Under the pieces are notes generated by a model. The model made no database searches. It was not told the DNA's origin and was given only the letters and a program-made list of their open reading frames with translations. Shown in pieces: positions 25,824 to 32,232 of a stretch of 64,000 nt of DNA. Numbering within the stretch: position 1 is the first letter of the stretch; every line of letters starts with the position of its first letter. Source of the DNA: an uncultured Chloroflexia bacterium (GTDB taxonomy: Bacteria; Chloroflexota; Dehalococcoidia; GIF9; UBA5629). The translations under genes and the position numbers were made by a program. The stretch covers positions 110,201 to 174,200 of the forward strand of contig CAVVVB010000017.1 of NCBI GenBank assembly GCA_963751585.1, given 5' to 3'.

Positions 25824-26411
25824 ATGACCACCGATATAATCAGCCGAAAGTTACTCGAATGGACACATGGCATGAGTGCCGAAGATGCCAGAATAACCAT
25901 TTTTTACAGGATAAGAGACATACCTTATGCTGTGCTCCCTGAACTCAATGACCCTGAACGATTTGTAGACATAGTTAAGCTCAATAGAGGTTCATGCACC
26001 CCTAAACATTTCTTGCTGTGTAACATGTTCCAAAAGATAGGGCTTGAAGTACTATACGTAGTCTATCCTTTTCTATGGGGTGATTTCGAAGCGCTCTACC
26101 CACCCGAGCTGCGTGATTTAGCTAGAACAATGCCGATGAGCTACCACCTGGCCTGCAAGGTAGACATACAAGGCAATCTCGTTCTGGTTGATGCTACCAT
26201 AGACCCAGCATTACAAAAGCTAGGTCTGCCTGTGAACAATAAGTGGGATGGCTTCAGTGAAACTCTACTCGCCATGAACCCATGCGGCGAGGAGCAATTG
26301 TACCATCCTTCTGAAGCCCGTCTCATGCAACCACAAAATACTGATGAAAAATCGCTGGCATTTTACAATGGACTTAACTCGTGGTTGGAAAGAGTGCGCC
26401 GCAGCCAATAA
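25824..26411 (+). CDS. Transglutaminase-like cysteine protease-fold protein
   Basis: IRDIPY, GSCTPKH (Cys), YHLACKV (His), VDAT (Asp) in transglutaminase triad order. Confidence 0.7.
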   Translation: MTTDIISRKLLEWTHGMSAEDARITIFYRIRDIPYAVLPELNDPERFVDIVKLNRGSCTPKHFLLCNMFQKIGLEVLYVVYPFLWGDFEALYPPELRDLARTMPMSYHLACKVDIQGNLVLVDATIDPALQKLGLPVNNKWDGFSETLLAMNPCGEEQLYHPSEARLMQPQNTDEKSLAFYNGLNSWLERVRRSQ

Positions 26412-26433
26412 TCTCGATCTCATTAGACAGACA

Positions 26434-27288
26434 ATGTCTGAAGCCAAAATGACTGGAATCTTTCTGCCTTACTTTCAGGGGCAAAGACTGGCTGATTTTC
26501 CCATGGCGCTAGCTGGAATCTTGGATTCCGAAAATGTTCATTACTACGACGGTATTTACCAAACTAACGGTGCCAACTATGTAAAACCTGTCAGTGAGAA
26601 ACTATTGTTAAAAGTGCATTCAAAAAGAATGATAGAATCGGTAAAGACTACCGGCGATTTTGAGGCAGCTTCTTACTCAGTTGGAGTAACGGTTCAAGCT
26701 GCGGAAGAAATTTATCAGGGGAATCTGGATAATGCCTTCGCCTTCACCGGGTTTGGCGACCATCATGCCGGCAGAGACTTTTACGGCGGCATGTGTTACT
26801 TCAATGGTGCCGCTCTGGCAATAGCCAAACTGAGAGAAAAGGGGATAAAGAAATTCGCCATAGTTGATACTGACAGTCATCATGCCGATGGTACCAGAGA
26901 TATCTTTCTACATGATAAAGACGTACTCCATATCTGCTTCTGTTTCCAAAATTATCGTGATACTAACAACAATGTCGATATTGCCATTCCCTATGGCACC
27001 AGCGACGAAAATTACATTCAAAATCTTCAGGATGGGTTTGTACCTCTGGTAAAGGCCTTCAGCCCACAGCTTTTATTCTGGGAATTTGGCTACGACGCCA
27101 CCAGTGGAGAATACGGCGACAAGGGTCTGACCAAGGACTGCCATATTGAAATCGCCAAGATAGTAAAATCAACCGCCGATGCTTTCTGTGATGGCAAATT
27201 GATAACCATTCTTTGCGGCGGTTCGAGACGTGATCTGGCAACCTATATAATTCCCAAAATCATTGCCATTCTGGCTGAACTCAAGTAG
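26434..27288 (+). CDS. Histone deacetylase-family (Zn) amidohydrolase
   Basis: DHHAG, GMCYFN, DTDSHHADGT, GYDA; start placed at ATG 26434 to avoid overlap with the upstream gene. Confidence 0.88.
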   Translation: MSEAKMTGIFLPYFQGQRLADFPMALAGILDSENVHYYDGIYQTNGANYVKPVSEKLLLKVHSKRMIESVKTTGDFEAASYSVGVTVQAAEEIYQGNLDNAFAFTGFGDHHAGRDFYGGMCYFNGAALAIAKLREKGIKKFAIVDTDSHHADGTRDIFLHDKDVLHICFCFQNYRDTNNNVDIAIPYGTSDENYIQNLQDGFVPLVKAFSPQLLFWEFGYDATSGEYGDKGLTKDCHIEIAKIVKSTADAFCDGKLITILCGGSRRDLATYIIPKIIAILAELK

Positions 27289-27297
27289 GATTTAGCC

Positions 27298-28881
27298 ATG
27301 GGCGCTTTAACCGCCGACCTTATCCTTTACAACGCTAACGTGGTCACTTTATGCTCAAACGATACCAATAGCCAGCTGGTTGCTATAAAGAACGGCAAAA
27401 TATTAAGCGTATCCACCAACGACACTCTCAACGATTTCAAAGGTGCCAGAACTCAAATAATAGACTGCCACGGTAAAACGATCCTTCCCGGTTTCAACGA
27501 TGCACATTGTCACTTTGTCGCTTTTGCCGAAAGCCTGCTTACCCTTGACCTCTCCCCGACTACAGTGCGTTCCATCTCTGACATTACAGTGCGTTCCATC
27601 TCTGACATTAAGGACCGCATCCGTAAATCGGCACAGAATTTGCCAGCAGGAAGCTGGATAAGAGCTGGTGGGTACAACGAGTTCTATTTAGCTGAGAAGC
27701 GTCACCCTACACGATGGGACTTGGATGAAGCCACAACCAGCCATCCGGTAAAACTGACCCACCGTTCGGGACACGCCCACGTCTTAAATAGCCGGGCTCT
27801 GGCACTCGCCGGCATCACTACAGAAACTCCTGAGCCACCTGGTGGCATGATTGAACGAGATCTGGAAAGCGGTGAGCCGAACGGTTTGCTCTACGGCATG
27901 AACGCGCTACTTTCAAGGGCAATACCGCCTATAGCGGACAGCGAACTGCAACAGGGAATGAGACTGGCAAACGAGAAACTTCTATCCCTAGGCATAACCT
28001 CGTTTCAGGATGCCTCTCCACACAACGATTTCCGCCGCTGGGAAATGTTCCGGCAATGGAAAAACCGGGGCTACCTTAAACCGCGAGTTCATATGATGCT
28101 GGGGATCGAAGCTCTAAGCCAGCTACACGAGCACAAGCTTCGTGCCAGAACTGGTGATGACCAGCTGCGTCTGGGCGCGATAAAAATAATCCTGGATGAA
28201 ACTCGGGGGCAGCTTAATCCACCTCAAGCAGAATTGAATAAGCAGGTGCTGGCGATTCACCAAGCGGGATTTCAAGCTGCTCTTCACGCCGTTAATGAAA
28301 CGATGGTAGAAGCTGCCTGTTCAGCTTTGGGCTCTGCGCTCAAGTCGTCACCACGGCAAGACCATCGCCACCGCATAGAACATTGCTCAGTATGTACTTC
28401 AACAATGGCCAAGAAGCTAGCCACTCTCGGTGTGGTCATTGTCACTCAGCCGGCTTTCGTGTACTACAGCGGAGACAGGTACCTCAAAACAGTGCCCGAG
28501 CCAGAGTTCAAACATTTATATCCTATAGCTTCTCTGACTAGAGCAGGTGTGAAAGTTGCCGCCAGTTCGGATTTCCCGGTGGTACCACCGGATCCACTGA
28601 TTGGCATCTATGCAGCATTCTCCCGATTGTCGCAAACGGGGCAAAGTATACTACCTGAAGAGCGCATCTCGGCTTCGCAGGCATTGAAGATGTACACTGA
28701 GCATGCGGCTCATGTCTGCTTCGAAGAAGATATCAAAGGCACAATAGCGCCAGGCAAACTCGCTGATCTAGTAGTGCTTGATGGAGACCCCACTGGGATA
28801 ACAGAAGAGAAGATAAGAGAATTAGAGGTGGAAATTACCCTAATAGATGGGAAAATAGCATACAAAAAGGGCAATGTCTAA
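27298..28881 (+). CDS. Amidohydrolase 3 family (YtcJ-like) metallohydrolase
   Basis: PGFNDAHCH, PTRWDLD, SGHAHVLNSRAL, HRIEHCS, SSDFPV, GKLADLVVLD. Confidence 0.92.
   Translation: MGALTADLILYNANVVTLCSNDTNSQLVAIKNGKILSVSTNDTLNDFKGARTQIIDCHGKTILPGFNDAHCHFVAFAESLLTLDLSPTTVRSISDITVRSISDIKDRIRKSAQNLPAGSWIRAGGYNEFYLAEKRHPTRWDLDEATTSHPVKLTHRSGHAHVLNSRALALAGITTETPEPPGGMIERDLESGEPNGLLYGMNALLSRAIPPIADSELQQGMRLANEKLLSLGITSFQDASPHNDFRRWEMFRQWKNRGYLKPRVHMMLGIEALSQLHEHKLRARTGDDQLRLGAIKIILDETRGQLNPPQAELNKQVLAIHQAGFQAALHAVNETMVEAACSALGSALKSSPRQDHRHRIEHCSVCTSTMAKKLATLGVVIVTQPAFVYYSGDRYLKTVPEPEFKHLYPIASLTRAGVKVAASSDFPVVPPDPLIGIYAAFSRLSQTGQSILPEERISASQALKMYTEHAAHVCFEEDIKGTIAPGKLADLVVLDGDPTGITEEKIRELEVEITLIDGKIAYKKGNV
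27561..27608 (+). repeat. Perfect 24-bp tandem duplication, in frame (TVRSISDI x2)
   Basis: tacagtgcgttccatctctgacat occurs twice head to tail. Confidence 0.95.
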
Positions 28882-28950: not shown

Positions 28951-29091
28951 TTAGTCAGATGAAGGTAAAGGCCTCGGCTCCTGGGGTTGCATCTCTTGGC
29001 CACAACAGATAACCTTGCCTTCGCCGCCCTTGGTGCATAGCACTTCAGTGCCGCAAGTCTGACATTTAAATCTCTTACCTAACTGATTCAT
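28951..29091 (-). CDS. Desulforedoxin-like micro-protein B (46 aa) with C-terminal PLPSSD tail, not in the ORF track
   Basis: Manual translation MNQLGKRFKCQTCGTEVLCTKGGEGKVICCGQEMQPQEPRPLPSSD; CxxC-x15-CC; GGGAG upstream. Confidence 0.85.
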   Translation of the reverse strand: MNQLGKRFKCQTCGTEVLCTKGGEGKVICCGQEMQPQEPRPLPSSD

Positions 29092-29139
29092 AATACTGTT
29101 TTTCTCCCGTCTGGCTCAAAAGCAAACAGCGGATATCAA

Positions 29140-29259
29140 CTACTTTTTCAGCTCCATTGGCTGCCCGCAGCAGGTTATTATCCCATCACCGCCTTTGGTA
29201 ACGATAAACTCGGAACCACATTTCTTACAAACGTATCTTTTGCCTGTCTGATTGGCCAC
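29140..29259 (-). CDS. Desulforedoxin-like micro-protein A (39 aa), not in the ORF track
   Basis: Manual translation MANQTGKRYVCKKCGSEFIVTKGGDGIITCCGQPMELKK; AGGAGGT RBS; CxxC-x15-CC. Confidence 0.88.
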   Translation of the reverse strand: MANQTGKRYVCKKCGSEFIVTKGGDGIITCCGQPMELKK

Positions 29260-29311
29260 TTCTATTAGACCTCCTGGAATATTTTAGCTCTAAAGTCTCT
29301 GAACTGCAAAA

Positions 29312-30871
29312 CTAAGGCTGCCCATACTGCTCACGGAGCGCTTTTCTTATCACTTTGCCCAAAGGATTACGGGGCAAGGAATCAACGAAAACAATCGACC
29401 TCGGGCGCTTGAAGCTCGCCAACTTGGCCCGGCAATACTCCATTAGCTCCTCGGCAGTGGCCACCTCACCTTTTTTCAGTACCACAACAGCCTTCGGCAC
29501 CTGCCCCCACTCGGGATCAGAAACACCGATGACAGCAGCCTCCTCCACCTTGGGATGAGAATGAAGCACATCCTCAAGCTCTTCGGGCGAGATATTCTCG
29601 CCGCCTCTGATAATCATATCGTCGCCACGGCCCGCCAGAAATATGTAGCCATCTTCATCCCGCCATCCCCTATCGCCTGTAATCAACCAGCCGTCGGTTG
29701 TAAAAGCCTGTTTTGTCTTTTGCTCATCGCGCCAATAGCCGGTCATTATTCGAGGGCCTTTAGCCACAATATCGCCGATTTCAAGCAGTGGTAGCTCTTT
29801 ACCTTGCTCATCTAGAATCTTAACTTCCACGTCAGGCAATGGCCTGCCAATTGACTGGGACAATCTCTTCAGTTTCTTCTCCTTCTCTTCGTCTGTCCCT
29901 TCAATTAAATGGTCCTCCGGCCCCAAAGCCGTTATGGTTGAAGCTGTTTCAGTCTGCCCGAAGGCATTTATGAACTTCACCCACGGCATTACTCGTATGG
30001 CCCTGGTAATAACTTCGAACGGCATGGAGGCTGCGCCGTAAGTGACTACCTGCAAGCTGTGCAAATCATATTTGGCAAAATCCGGGTAATCTATCACCAT
30101 TTTTAGCATCGTCGGCACGAGCATGGCACGGGTAGCCTTCTCCCGCTGAACGGTTTCCAACCACTCTTTAACTTCGAATTGCCGCATCATCACCAGGGTC
30201 CGCCCGCCGTAAATGGCCGCCAGCATGCCCTGTATCCCAGCCACATGATATAAAGGCACAGTCAGGAGATTTCTTTCCTCTACATCCGGGCTGGCTGGCT
30301 CCACATTACCCAGAACATAACTGACAAAGGCATCATGTCGCAGGGGTACGCCTTTCGGTCGCCCAGTAGTGCCGGCGGTATACATCAGGATAGTAAAATC
30401 CTCATCTCCGACATCGGAGAAAACTTCATCCGGAGAGGCTTCATTAATCAGATCATTATAGAAAGGCATGTCTGCCTCTTTGCCATCCAGACAGATGCAT
30501 TTCTTTATCGTAGGTAAGCTGGAAAGCATGTCACGCGCCATGTCCAGATACCTTTTGCCCACAAACAAGACCTTGGCCTCAGCATTGCCCAACATGTAAC
30601 TCAGTTCATCTGTTTTGGCTCTGAAATTCAAGGGAACAAAAATGCCACCCATCTTAACCGTGGCAAAATACGACTCAACGATCTCGGGACAATTCACCTG
30701 GAGCATAGCTATGCGGTCGCCTTTATTCACTCCAGATACTATCAAGGCATTAGCCAGCCTGTTAACCCTCTCGCTGATCTGAGAATAGGTCCATCTCTTT
30801 CCCTCAAAGACTATGGCATCACGGTCCGGACATATAGCAGTGGCTATGTTTAAAAAATCACCAGTGTTCAC
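29312..30871 (-). CDS. AMP-forming acyl-CoA synthetase-family (ANL) ligase
   Basis: YTAGTTGRPKG, FGQTE, TGDRG..D.DGYIFLAGR.DDMIIRGGENI, LPRNPLGK. Confidence 0.92.
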   Translation of the reverse strand: MNTGDFLNIATAICPDRDAIVFEGKRWTYSQISERVNRLANALIVSGVNKGDRIAMLQVNCPEIVESYFATVKMGGIFVPLNFRAKTDELSYMLGNAEAKVLFVGKRYLDMARDMLSSLPTIKKCICLDGKEADMPFYNDLINEASPDEVFSDVGDEDFTILMYTAGTTGRPKGVPLRHDAFVSYVLGNVEPASPDVEERNLLTVPLYHVAGIQGMLAAIYGGRTLVMMRQFEVKEWLETVQREKATRAMLVPTMLKMVIDYPDFAKYDLHSLQVVTYGAASMPFEVITRAIRVMPWVKFINAFGQTETASTITALGPEDHLIEGTDEEKEKKLKRLSQSIGRPLPDVEVKILDEQGKELPLLEIGDIVAKGPRIMTGYWRDEQKTKQAFTTDGWLITGDRGWRDEDGYIFLAGRGDDMIIRGGENISPEELEDVLHSHPKVEEAAVIGVSDPEWGQVPKAVVVLKKGEVATAEELMEYCRAKLASFKRPRSIVFVDSLPRNPLGKVIRKALREQYGQP

Positions 30872-31122
30872 GTCAACCCCTTAAATAAAATAGTGACTAA
30901 CATAATAACCGAAGGGCTCGGGGACAGTCAACCACGGCAGGATAAGATTTCTAATCGAAAGCCCTGTGGCCCGGGCAAAATGACTGAGTCACCTACTGGA
31001 CATCCTATGAGGCTGTAGCCAATATAATATGTTATTGTTGTGCAGGCACAGGCCTTGCACAGTGCTACGAGTAACCAAGTATCCTCGATTAGACAATGCG
31101 TAAGTGTCAGGGCATTTTGATG

Positions 31123-32232
31123 CTAACGTGCTTCTGACAGGGCTGTCGGGGGAGTCTTTACCTCAGGTCCAATTATTGGAGCTTCGCTTAGTCTCAAGGC
31201 TTCCTTTAGATCTGCTACCCCTTCCTCAATTTTCTTGGGAATAACCTTTATTTTGTCAAACTGTGGGAATTTCTCAGTTTTAATTTTCTCAGCCTCTGGA
31301 TTCAAGATAATTAGGCGAAGGTCTCGCTCTAGACTCCTTATGAAAATGTCTCGAATTGTGGGGTCATCAAATCTATAGCCGATAACGACACAAGTTCGAG
31401 CTTTTCCTAAGTATCCTTCAAAATATGTTCTCAGTGACTGGTAGGGCTCGCCATACTGGAAGTCATAAGTGCCAGGTGGGATAAGCACATTTTCTCTCCA
31501 GTAGCCGCGCAGTTCAAAAAGCCCCTCTTCTGCCTCCCTAAGTTCGTGATAGATGTCTCTCCTCCAGTTCAACGACCCGTGCAACTTAAAAAGGAATAAT
31601 TTGTCTACCCCTGGTTCCTGGTCAAACGCTTCCTCAGGAGACCAAATTGGATTTCGGTGTGTTCCTTTCCTTGGTTCATTTTTCCCTAGTTCCTTAAAAC
31701 CCCTTACGACTCGGTCAATACTAGACCCAGGAATATTTTCTAAGGATTCTATGACCTTGTCATAATTCGTCGTGAAGATAGGAACCATATTATCATTCTG
31801 TTCTCTGATAACATGAATATAGTCTTGATAAATTTCCCATGCTTTATCCAACTCCGGCTTATCACCGTATGCAATATATAACTGACTTACAATTTTATTC
31901 TTAAGGCTGGCATATGTGCTGCTAAACAGTTCGTCTAACTTCTGAGTAGCTTCTGGAGTGAGAGAATCCTGCGTGGTGCGATGCGGTGAAAATGCTTCTT
32001 GCTTCAACAGTGGATCTTTGCTCTCCTTTATACGTAGGTCGAGAGCCCTGATAATATCCTCAATAGTAATATTGGGGTATCTCGCAAAAAAATCAAAGAC
32101 CTCCTTCTCAGATTTCCCTAAGGACATATTTCTTACTTCGGTTATGAATTGGTCAGTGGTCTTATATCCCAAAGGAGTAGAAGCGCCTGCCCCAATAAAA
32201 AGGATAGCATCGACTGGGTGAATGTTTGTCAT
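31123..32232 (-). CDS. SIR2-like domain protein (SIR2_2 type)
   Basis: ILFIGAGAS, IFTTNYD, LFKLHGSLNW, VVIGYRFDD; no sirtuin Zn-finger cysteines. Confidence 0.88.
   Translation of the reverse strand: MTNIHPVDAILFIGAGASTPLGYKTTDQFITEVRNMSLGKSEKEVFDFFARYPNITIEDIIRALDLRIKESKDPLLKQEAFSPHRTTQDSLTPEATQKLDELFSSTYASLKNKIVSQLYIAYGDKPELDKAWEIYQDYIHVIREQNDNMVPIFTTNYDKVIESLENIPGSSIDRVVRGFKELGKNEPRKGTHRNPIWSPEEAFDQEPGVDKLFLFKLHGSLNWRRDIYHELREAEEGLFELRGYWRENVLIPPGTYDFQYGEPYQSLRTYFEGYLGKARTCVVIGYRFDDPTIRDIFIRSLERDLRLIILNPEAEKIKTEKFPQFDKIKVIPKKIEEGVADLKEALRLSEAPIIGPEVKTPPTALSEAR

Follow-up and report, generated by a model that had tools for sequence, protein, structure and literature searches.

A conserved pair of desulforedoxin-like micro-proteins linked to an insertion-bearing acyl-CoA ligase in an uncultured Chloroflexia bacterium

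We describe a three-gene locus on the minus strand of a 64,000-nucleotide window (the whole stretch of DNA analysed, positions 110,201-174,200 of contig CAVVVB010000017.1, assembly GCA_963751585.1) from an uncultured Chloroflexia bacterium, in which a gene for an ANL-superfamily acyl-coenzyme A (CoA) ligase is followed by genes for two mini-proteins, here called A and B. The two small genes are real and are conserved as a pair across several phyla, B ends in a tail whose terminal aspartate is invariant, the pair is linked to ligases, and the ligases adjacent to it share a signature insertion. Our leading reading, which we hold tentatively, is that A-B is an accessory or adaptor of the acid-activating step in an acyl-CoA pathway, the tail of B docking by its terminal aspartate. 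The locus comprises the following features:

29312..30871, minus strand: ANL-superfamily acyl-CoA ligase, 519 amino acids, GTG start (PF00501 288.7 bits, PF13193 88.5 bits)
29140..29259, minus strand: mini-protein A, 39 amino acids, GTG start, CxxC...CC, C-terminus MELKK (PF06397 34.7 bits)
28951..29091, minus strand: mini-protein B, 46 amino acids, ATG start, extra Cys19 (LCTK), tail QEPRPLPSSD (PF06397 33.3 bits)
29270..29275, minus strand: Shine-Dalgarno-like AGGAGG, 10 nucleotides 5' of the A GTG start (read from sequence)
29104..29108, minus strand: Shine-Dalgarno-like GGGAG, 12 nucleotides 5' of the B ATG start (read from sequence)
30902..30931, minus strand: promoter-like site upstream of the ligase start (TTGACT, 18-nucleotide spacer, TATTAT; 10/12; consensus match only)

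The A-B pair and its C-terminal tail

The two small genes lie 3' of the ligase on the same strand, with gaps of 52 nucleotides between ligase and A and 48 nucleotides between A and B, and each has a Shine-Dalgarno-like site of its own, as had been proposed when the DNA was read without database searches (the original prediction). Both products pass the 23-bit cut-off of PF06397 (Desulfoferrod_N) and both contain the metal-ligand cysteines C10, C13, C29 and C30, which bears out their description as paralogues with the ligand spacing of desulforedoxin; with the NCBIfam domain model TIGR00319 they scored 24 bits (A) and 23 bits (B), both under its cut-off of 36.05. The additional cysteine of LCTK and the PLPSSD end are found in B and not in A. 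A and B are the sole PF06397 matches of the 2.5-megabase genome, which is 94.6% complete, and no superoxide-reductase domain (PF01880) was found anywhere in that genome, extending the earlier remark that no such catalytic domain lies nearby. The original observation was correct in all its particulars.

Compared with 16 orthologues, the synonymous sites of A and B were near saturation and the replacement sites were not, with proportions of synonymous (pS) and replacement (pN) differences of 0.80 and 0.14 for A and 0.85 and 0.15 for B. Since pN falls far under pS, this comparison indicates that A and B are real, strongly constrained genes and more than chance open reading frames (ORFs). For the tail codons of B (37-46), pS was 0.84 and pN 0.03. 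Thirteen positions were invariant in A across 74 orthologues (G5, K6, Y8, C10, C13, E16, I18, T20, G23, G25, C29, C30 and K37), with a consensus C-terminus of MELKK; those invariant in B were L4, G5, K6, R7, C10, C13, E16, L18, C19, G25, C29, C30, M34, P43, S44, S45 and D46. The 70 relatives of B that are near to it in length are nearly all 46-47 amino acids long and 62-93% identical, with a nearly invariant tail, and the few sources that name them give Dehalococcoidia or Chloroflexota proteins.

For the wider family, a profile search of 1.84 billion representatives returned 1134 proteins at E <= 0.001 and 200 at E <= 1e-10. Residue statistics for B were based on 120 of the best 150 matches, namely those with a B-type match reaching the protein's own end; most of the 30 rows dropped had a read-through or frameshift past the tail, had an A-type end, or belonged to a small group with Ser-Glu or other residues at the C-terminus. 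Residue 46 was Asp in 120 of these 120 representatives, R7 and G5 were each kept in 118, and P43 was kept in 104. Position 19 was Cys in 80, Val in 24, Ala in 5, and Ser, Ile or Thr in 3 each, whereas Ser44 was Ser in 99, Ala in 9 and Gly in 5, and Ser45 was Ser in 93, Ala in 21 and Gly in 5. The metal ligands of the B half numbered four cysteines in 72 representatives, three in 37 (often by Cys to His replacement) and two or fewer in 11, with C30 replaced by His in 26. On this alignment the terminal aspartate is the sole residue of the flexible, Pro-rich tail without any replacement, and conservation of the tail, a check that the original prediction had itself put forward, was borne out among the orthologues. 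Because Cys19, Ser44 and Ser45 are all replaced in some of the 120, no nucleophile of B is universal, and the replacements at position 19 lead us to reject Cys19 as a generally catalytic residue.

Two small subgroups depart from these patterns. The two-repeat relatives P0293, P0300, P0347 and P0370 end in Ser-Glu instead of Ser-Asp. In the B-type proteins P0246, P0247, P0280, P0285, P0290 and P0301 (104-118 amino acids), the A half is swapped for an unrelated N-terminal domain of about 60 residues, and several of them carry Ala or Val for Cys19.

A scan of one genome per species gave 371 stretches encoding a B relative, of which we kept 80 loci for analysis, from Chloroflexota, Acidobacteriota, Desulfobacterota-type lineages and one Leptospirales metagenome-assembled genome (MAG). 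A-B is found in at least 371 species genomes of several phyla, plus hundreds of metagenome contigs. In 78 of the 80 loci the gene immediately 5' of B is A; the other two loci end within 50 nucleotides of the start of B, which leaves no room for A. Judged by gene order, the conserved unit is the A-B pair, which behaves as an obligate pair. Natural fusions of the two also occur, comprising a few plain A-linker-B read-throughs and a large group of proteins of about 101 amino acids, in which a linker joins an A-like half to a B-like half, one of these proteins being named as a Streptomyces protein.

In the 80 metagenome loci of the fused form, the protein ends in PLPASD (44), PLPSSD (26, taking in one locus whose frame ends ...PLPSSD without a stop codon being read), ALPSSD (6), KLPASD (3) or ALPASD (1). 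GKRY, LC(T/S/V)K-G-G and the tail are retained in 80 of 80, including the cysteine at the place of Cys19, while only two to four cysteines are retained in total and the four ligands of the B half are lost. This loss of ligands, with the surface and tail of B kept, suggests that the metal site is structural. For one fused A-B, AlphaFold2 gave a single compact all-beta body with a predicted local distance difference test (pLDDT) of 92.1 and a predicted template modelling score of 0.81, the tail being less ordered (mean pLDDT 80 for residues 91-100 and 62 for residue 101). A Foldseek search of this model against the PDB returned no chain at E <= 0.001, a null that is uninformative because it is expected if the solved relative consists of two 36-residue chains, the fused model being a pseudo-dimer. 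No fusion of B with an enzyme was found among proteins of 82-2000 amino acids in a word-limited search, the longest relatives having 136 amino acids, and the clusters nearest to A-B in the Protein Atlas were auto-named PF06397 clusters only.

The ligase, its insertion and the reach of the linkage

The ligase of the window scored 509.4 bits with NF004837 (PRK06187; cut-off 476), and no equivalog model reached its cut-off. The sequence contains the core motifs TAGTTGRPKG, GQTE, GRGDDMIIRGGENI and a C-terminal GK, and it aligns end to end with solved long-chain or medium-chain acyl-CoA synthetases such as FadD5 from Mycobacterium tuberculosis (8r2q), 3ivr and FadD13 (3r44), with E-values from 4e-86 to 4e-74. 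The best 120 homologues are 74-89% identical over their full length, save the window's own entry and four shorter rows. In contrast to FadD5 and 3ivr, its two best solved relatives, the window's ligase has extra residues at one place:

29855..29920, minus strand: ligase insertion of 12-15 residues after the TE motif, residues ~318-339 (alignment comparison)

This insertion travels with A-B. It was present in 24 of 24 adjacent ligases, that is, the window's own and 23 of 23 full-length ones downstream of fused A-B, and all 16 of the non-adjacent ligases examined lacked it; these comprised two distal ligases in fused loci, two paralogues from this genome, six best matches from genomes in which a CoA-transferase stands in the ligase's place (CoA-transferase-type genomes), four second ligases sharing a locus with an adjacent one, and two more. 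The window's ligase is only 33-39% identical to the fused-locus ligases over the full length, with partial alignments down to 26%. In these alignments the A-B-linked ligases make up a recognisable kind with a signature insertion, and the insertion would be the likely contact site for A-B.

The gene immediately before A-B is the ligase in 17 of 71 unfused loci, and an ANL ligase starts within 200 nucleotides downstream of the fused form in 32 of the 59 loci with room for one, in agreement with the two-repeat protein ending PLP(A/S)SD that the original prediction had placed beside similar ligases. Our own gene calls were the longest non-overlapping ORFs, which are crude especially in GC-rich metagenome loci, and the ligase counts were redone with tblastn because of the antisense shadow ORFs among them. 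Where A-B is not beside the ligase, an orthologue is encoded elsewhere in 4 of 5 genomes (one of these orthologues apparently broken) and in 24 of 50 others, and a ligase away from A-B still has at least one crotonase gene alongside in 10 of 12 places. The variant of the tail showed no clear relation to ligase adjacency in the fused loci (PLPASD in 20 with and 13 without, PLPSSD in 6 with and 12 without). The apparently broken orthologue, in the genome of locus L079 (G001:C4:6984-8230), lies in three pieces in different frames with one in-frame TGA; A-B is intact in that genome despite it.

For the prediction of a complex, A, B and the ligase were each entered with their own alignment and the ligase served as the scored partner, an arrangement for which the calibration of the score holds only roughly. 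The A+B+ligase runs scored 0.61, 0.43 and 0.60 (median 0.60), shared at least 74% of contacts and had a partner pLDDT of at least 86; controls with the ligase replaced scored 0.05 and 0.00, and one with B replaced scored 0.11. Of 80 solved complexes 58 reach the score mark, as do 2 of 110 mismatched pairs; scores of 0.60 or less among these passes belong to only 7 of the solved complexes and to both mismatches. The multimer test suggested with the original prediction separated the trio (0.60) from its best control (0.11), at a level classed as weak support for the complex, and the model points to physical binding of A-B to the ligase as a possibility.

Several results weigh against so direct a tie between the pair and this enzyme. 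The score of 0.60 is in a range where wrong passes outnumber right ones unless the complex was already likely on other grounds, and the prediction returned a score without an interface. Among 301 Chloroflexota genomes, a tailed B occurs in 17 and a ligase orthologue (E <= 1e-130) in 13, with both in 11 genomes spanning eight families, the ligase only in 2 and B only in 6, so that 6 of the 17 B-bearing genomes have no ligase orthologue, and because related genomes are not independent such counts overstate the co-occurrence. The gene directly upstream of A-B is an unrelated one in 35 of 71 loci, and no ligase orthologue was found in 26 of 50 other A-B genomes, many of which are incomplete MAGs. 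In the CoA-transferase-type genomes, 5 of 5 were without a ligase orthologue or an insertion-bearing ligase, the best matches being 32-36% identical, and the tail of B is unchanged in them.

Because the tail is equally conserved in genomes without the ligase, the ligase cannot be its only target, and as sole partner of A-B it is ruled out by those five genomes. The unchanged tail where a CoA-transferase replaces the ligase suggests instead that the role of A-B belongs to the acid-activating step or pathway and not to the ligase alone. As far as gene neighbourhoods show, the linkage of A-B to ligases is real but not obligate. The expectation that homologues would be linked to this ligase clade therefore held in part, with the ligase upstream in 17 of 71 loci and the insertion in 24 of 24 against 0 of 16, and failed in that A-B also occurs without this ligase. 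The proposal that A and B form a heterodimeric metal-binding partner of the ligase fared similarly, favoured by the conservation of the pair, the fusions, the ligase linkage and the weak complex score, and limited by a linkage that is not obligate.

Neighbouring genes and pathway context

At least one gene of a recurring set was present in 47 of the 80 unfused loci, and no CoA-cluster family was seen in the other 33. Crotonase-family enzymes (PF00378) occurred in 34 loci and family III CoA-transferases (PF02515) in 27, each usually as two genes; an Amidohydro_3 enzyme on the opposite strand was found in 27, other phyla included, a ligase of the window's type in 18, the A and B subunits of 3-oxoacid CoA-transferase (TIGR02429 and TIGR02428, both above cut-off) in 13 and 12 respectively, and an NMO/FabK-like flavoenzyme in 11, with acyl-CoA dehydrogenase genes in some loci. 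Apart from the ligase, the gene directly upstream of A-B in the 71 unfused loci was the CoA-transferase B subunit in 11 and a crotonase in 7. The usual order is crotonase, crotonase, ligase or CoA-transferase A/B, A, B, and two family III CoA-transferases. Because crotonases share operons with the ligase, the ligase probably forms acyl-CoA.

The window's version of the set is ligase-A-B only, the crotonase pair and CoA-transferase lying elsewhere in the genome. This genome has family III CoA-transferase genes in no fewer than six tandem pairs (contigs C8, C12, C14, C17 and C25), which fits an organism with many CoA-dependent acid pathways. Another genome (G340) carries two copies of A-B, at loci L057 and L178, one of them far from the orthologous ligase and the other in a full cluster of crotonase, ligase, A, B, HDAC-type amidohydrolase, NMO and two family III CoA-transferases.

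Three genes on the plus strand of the window (25824-28881) are convergent to ligase-A-B, and this triad recurs in several Dehalococcoidia loci:

25824..26411, plus strand: 195-amino-acid protein, recurrent neighbour (no Pfam or NCBIfam family; 11/80 loci)
26344..27288, plus strand: HDAC-family amidohydrolase, recurrent in a subset of loci (PF00850 128.5 bits; 5/80 loci by our own gene calls)
27298..28881, plus strand: Amidohydro_3 amidohydrolase, 527 amino acids, convergent, recurrent A-B neighbour (PF07969 302.1 bits; 27/80 loci)

The HDAC-type enzyme also gave tblastn matches in several A-B loci, and it adjoins A-B in L178. Its annotated start in the window overlaps the ORF of the 195-residue protein by 68 nucleotides and its relatives align only from about residue 30, so that the true start is probably later than annotated. 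Within the Amidohydro_3 gene, a 24-nucleotide tandem duplication (27561-27610, 2.1 copies, 100% match) encodes TVRSISDI twice in frame. The next gene upstream of the ligase, also on the minus strand, encodes a 369-residue SIR2_2-domain protein (31123-32232; PF13289, 46.8 bits), which is outside the conserved neighbourhood of other A-B loci.

Candidate roles and significance

On the reading we tentatively prefer, A and B would form a desulforedoxin-fold heterodimer with structural metal sites, and the pair would serve as a small non-catalytic adaptor of an acid-activating enzyme in a pathway whose core is crotonase, crotonase and ligase. The partner in the window would be the insertion-bearing ANL ligase encoded just upstream, and elsewhere a ScoAB/PcaIJ-type CoA-transferase encoded in the same place. 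The functional surface would be supplied by B, through GKR, the LCTK strand and the flexible Pro-rich tail, whose invariant C-terminal aspartate may dock into the partner enzyme and may thereby affect catalysis. The ligase would still yield acyl-CoA, to be processed by the crotonases and family III CoA-transferases, since the enzymes regularly encoded alongside use CoA esters and the ligase can be replaced by a CoA-transferase. Like MbtH-like proteins, A-B is tiny, non-catalytic and encoded beside an ANL adenylating enzyme, and in both cases the partners may have a sequence signature. However, A-B is unrelated to them in fold and sequence (PF03621 is not among the Pfam matches at E <= 1) and its partner would be an acyl-CoA ligase, not a domain of a non-ribosomal peptide synthetase; the likeness lies in the genes, binding and activation being predictions.

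The evidence of linkage and tail that favours an accessory subunit would equally suit a regulatory cap, in which A-B is a metal- or redox-sensitive pseudo-substrate that places its terminal aspartate in the carboxylate site of the enzyme and so gates its activity. A terminal dicarboxylic residue resembles a small acid substrate, and cysteine-rich metal sites could sense redox state or metal, but computation cannot separate a cap from an accessory subunit, and the loss of metal sites in the fused forms speaks against sensing as a general role; we regard a cap as distinctly improbable. Were A and B instead free electron carriers of the desulforedoxin or rubredoxin type, or oxygen-defence proteins, their vicinity to CoA enzymes would be incidental or would serve a nearby flavoenzyme. 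The window's proteins do keep all four cysteine ligands and match PF06397, their best PDB sequence matches are desulfoferrodoxin (1vzg, E 1.4e-5) and desulforedoxin (1cfw, E 3.5e-5), which share the module of about 36 residues with CxxC...CC (as does the 1dxg entry), NMO/FabK-like and acyl-CoA dehydrogenase genes occur in some loci, and 33 of 80 loci have no CoA-cluster family. Desulforedoxin is a dimer; in that part we find here two paralogues or a fused tandem. In contrast to desulforedoxin, A-B is an obligate heteropair with a specialised B (GKR, the LCTK strand, a tail of ten residues and an invariant Asp), its family can lose the metal ligands, and its linkage is to acyl-CoA enzymes, not oxygen defence. 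Neither an invariant Asp at the end of a conserved tail nor a heterodimer in which one half is specialised is typical of electron carriers, no superoxide reductase was found in the genome, and fused relatives without most ligands still have the tail and the B surface; this loss of ligands makes a free electron-carrier role quite unlikely.

Two further possibilities would give B a covalent role. That the ligase loads its acyl-adenylate onto Cys19 or a tail serine of B in place of CoA, as the original prediction suggested, might be argued from the invariance of Cys19 in 74 close orthologues, from the cysteine of LC[T/S/V]K being kept in 80 of 80 fused forms despite the loss of metal ligands, and from the position of the B gene near that of an adenylating enzyme. 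Yet position 19 is not Cys in many of the 120 representatives (Val in 24), Ser44 is Ala or Gly in 14 and Ser45 in 26, a CoA-transferase can replace the ligase (11 of 71 loci), and the downstream enzymes need CoA esters. With every candidate acceptor replaceable and neighbours that use CoA esters, we consider this proposal highly improbable, and that part of the original prediction is not supported. Acyl or peptidyl carrier proteins have a helical fold and a phosphopantetheinylated Ser, whereas B has no match to a PP-binding family, the model is all-beta, and the tail serines can be replaced by Ala or Gly.

The C-terminal aspartate itself could alternatively be the activated group, making B a covalent carrier or modifier in the manner of LysW/AmCP or Pup; the ligase or CoA-transferase would activate the Asp46 carboxylate, a substrate amine or target lysine would be attached, and the amidohydrolases would release it. 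In AmCP systems a small carrier protein is described as bearing pathway intermediates (PMC11726168). Like LysW, B is a small metal-ribbon-type protein with a flexible tail and an acidic residue conserved at the last position, D46 being the only tail residue never changed (120/120). The attachment site of LysW is its C-terminal Glu, and a few relatives of B do end in Ser-Glu. Both types of enzyme encoded before A-B act on carboxylates, and Amidohydro_3 is present in 27 of 80 loci, with the HDAC-type amidohydrolase in some; activation at Asp46 would explain both the equal conservation of the tail with ligase or CoA-transferase and the recurrence of amidohydrolases. In contrast to LysW, however, B ends in Asp (120/120) and not Glu, no LysW family is among its Pfam matches at E <= 1, and the genes beside A-B are not those of lysine or arginine pathways, the companions acting on CoA esters. 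Neither an ATP-grasp (LysX/ArgX) nor a Pup-ligase-type enzyme was found nearby, the ATP-grasp type being absent from the annotated families of the window and the 80 unfused and 80 fused loci, where many other neighbours are unannotated. The commonest companions, crotonases and CoA-transferases, have small CoA esters as substrates, not intermediates bound to a protein, the crotonases are left unexplained, amidohydrolases are missing from most loci, and to our knowledge there is no precedent for an ANL enzyme adenylating a protein C-terminus, which also counts against it. We therefore think such a carrier unlikely, and quite unlikely the specific scheme in which B is a protein-borne carboxylate, its Asp activated by the ANL ligase or CoA-transferase and its conjugates resolved by Amidohydro_3 and HDAC-type enzymes.

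Returning to the accessory role, the fold family is known, whereas the heteropair, the specialised B half, the invariant tail, the linkage to acid-activating enzymes and the ligase insertion are apparently undescribed in the literature reached. We found no paper on any of these, with subscription journals and supplements lying outside the search, and the accessible parts of papers since 2018 that mention desulforedoxin concern other subjects. Few enzyme families have been studied as much as the ANL acyl-CoA ligases, which are treated as stand-alone enzymes except in non-ribosomal peptide synthetase systems; here one recognisable kind of them is accompanied by a pair of micro-proteins often overlooked in gene calling. 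If A-B binds these enzymes, it would be a new accessory subunit, with a sequence signature that predicts which ligases need it, which would bear on how such ligases of uncultured anaerobes and soil bacteria are expressed and assayed. If instead the terminal aspartate is activated, the pair would represent a new carrier or tagging chemistry, and B would be the first carrier or modifier system on a desulforedoxin fold to be driven by an ANL enzyme. For the family as a whole, the pattern of conservation shows what appears to be a desulforedoxin fold recruited for a non-redox role.

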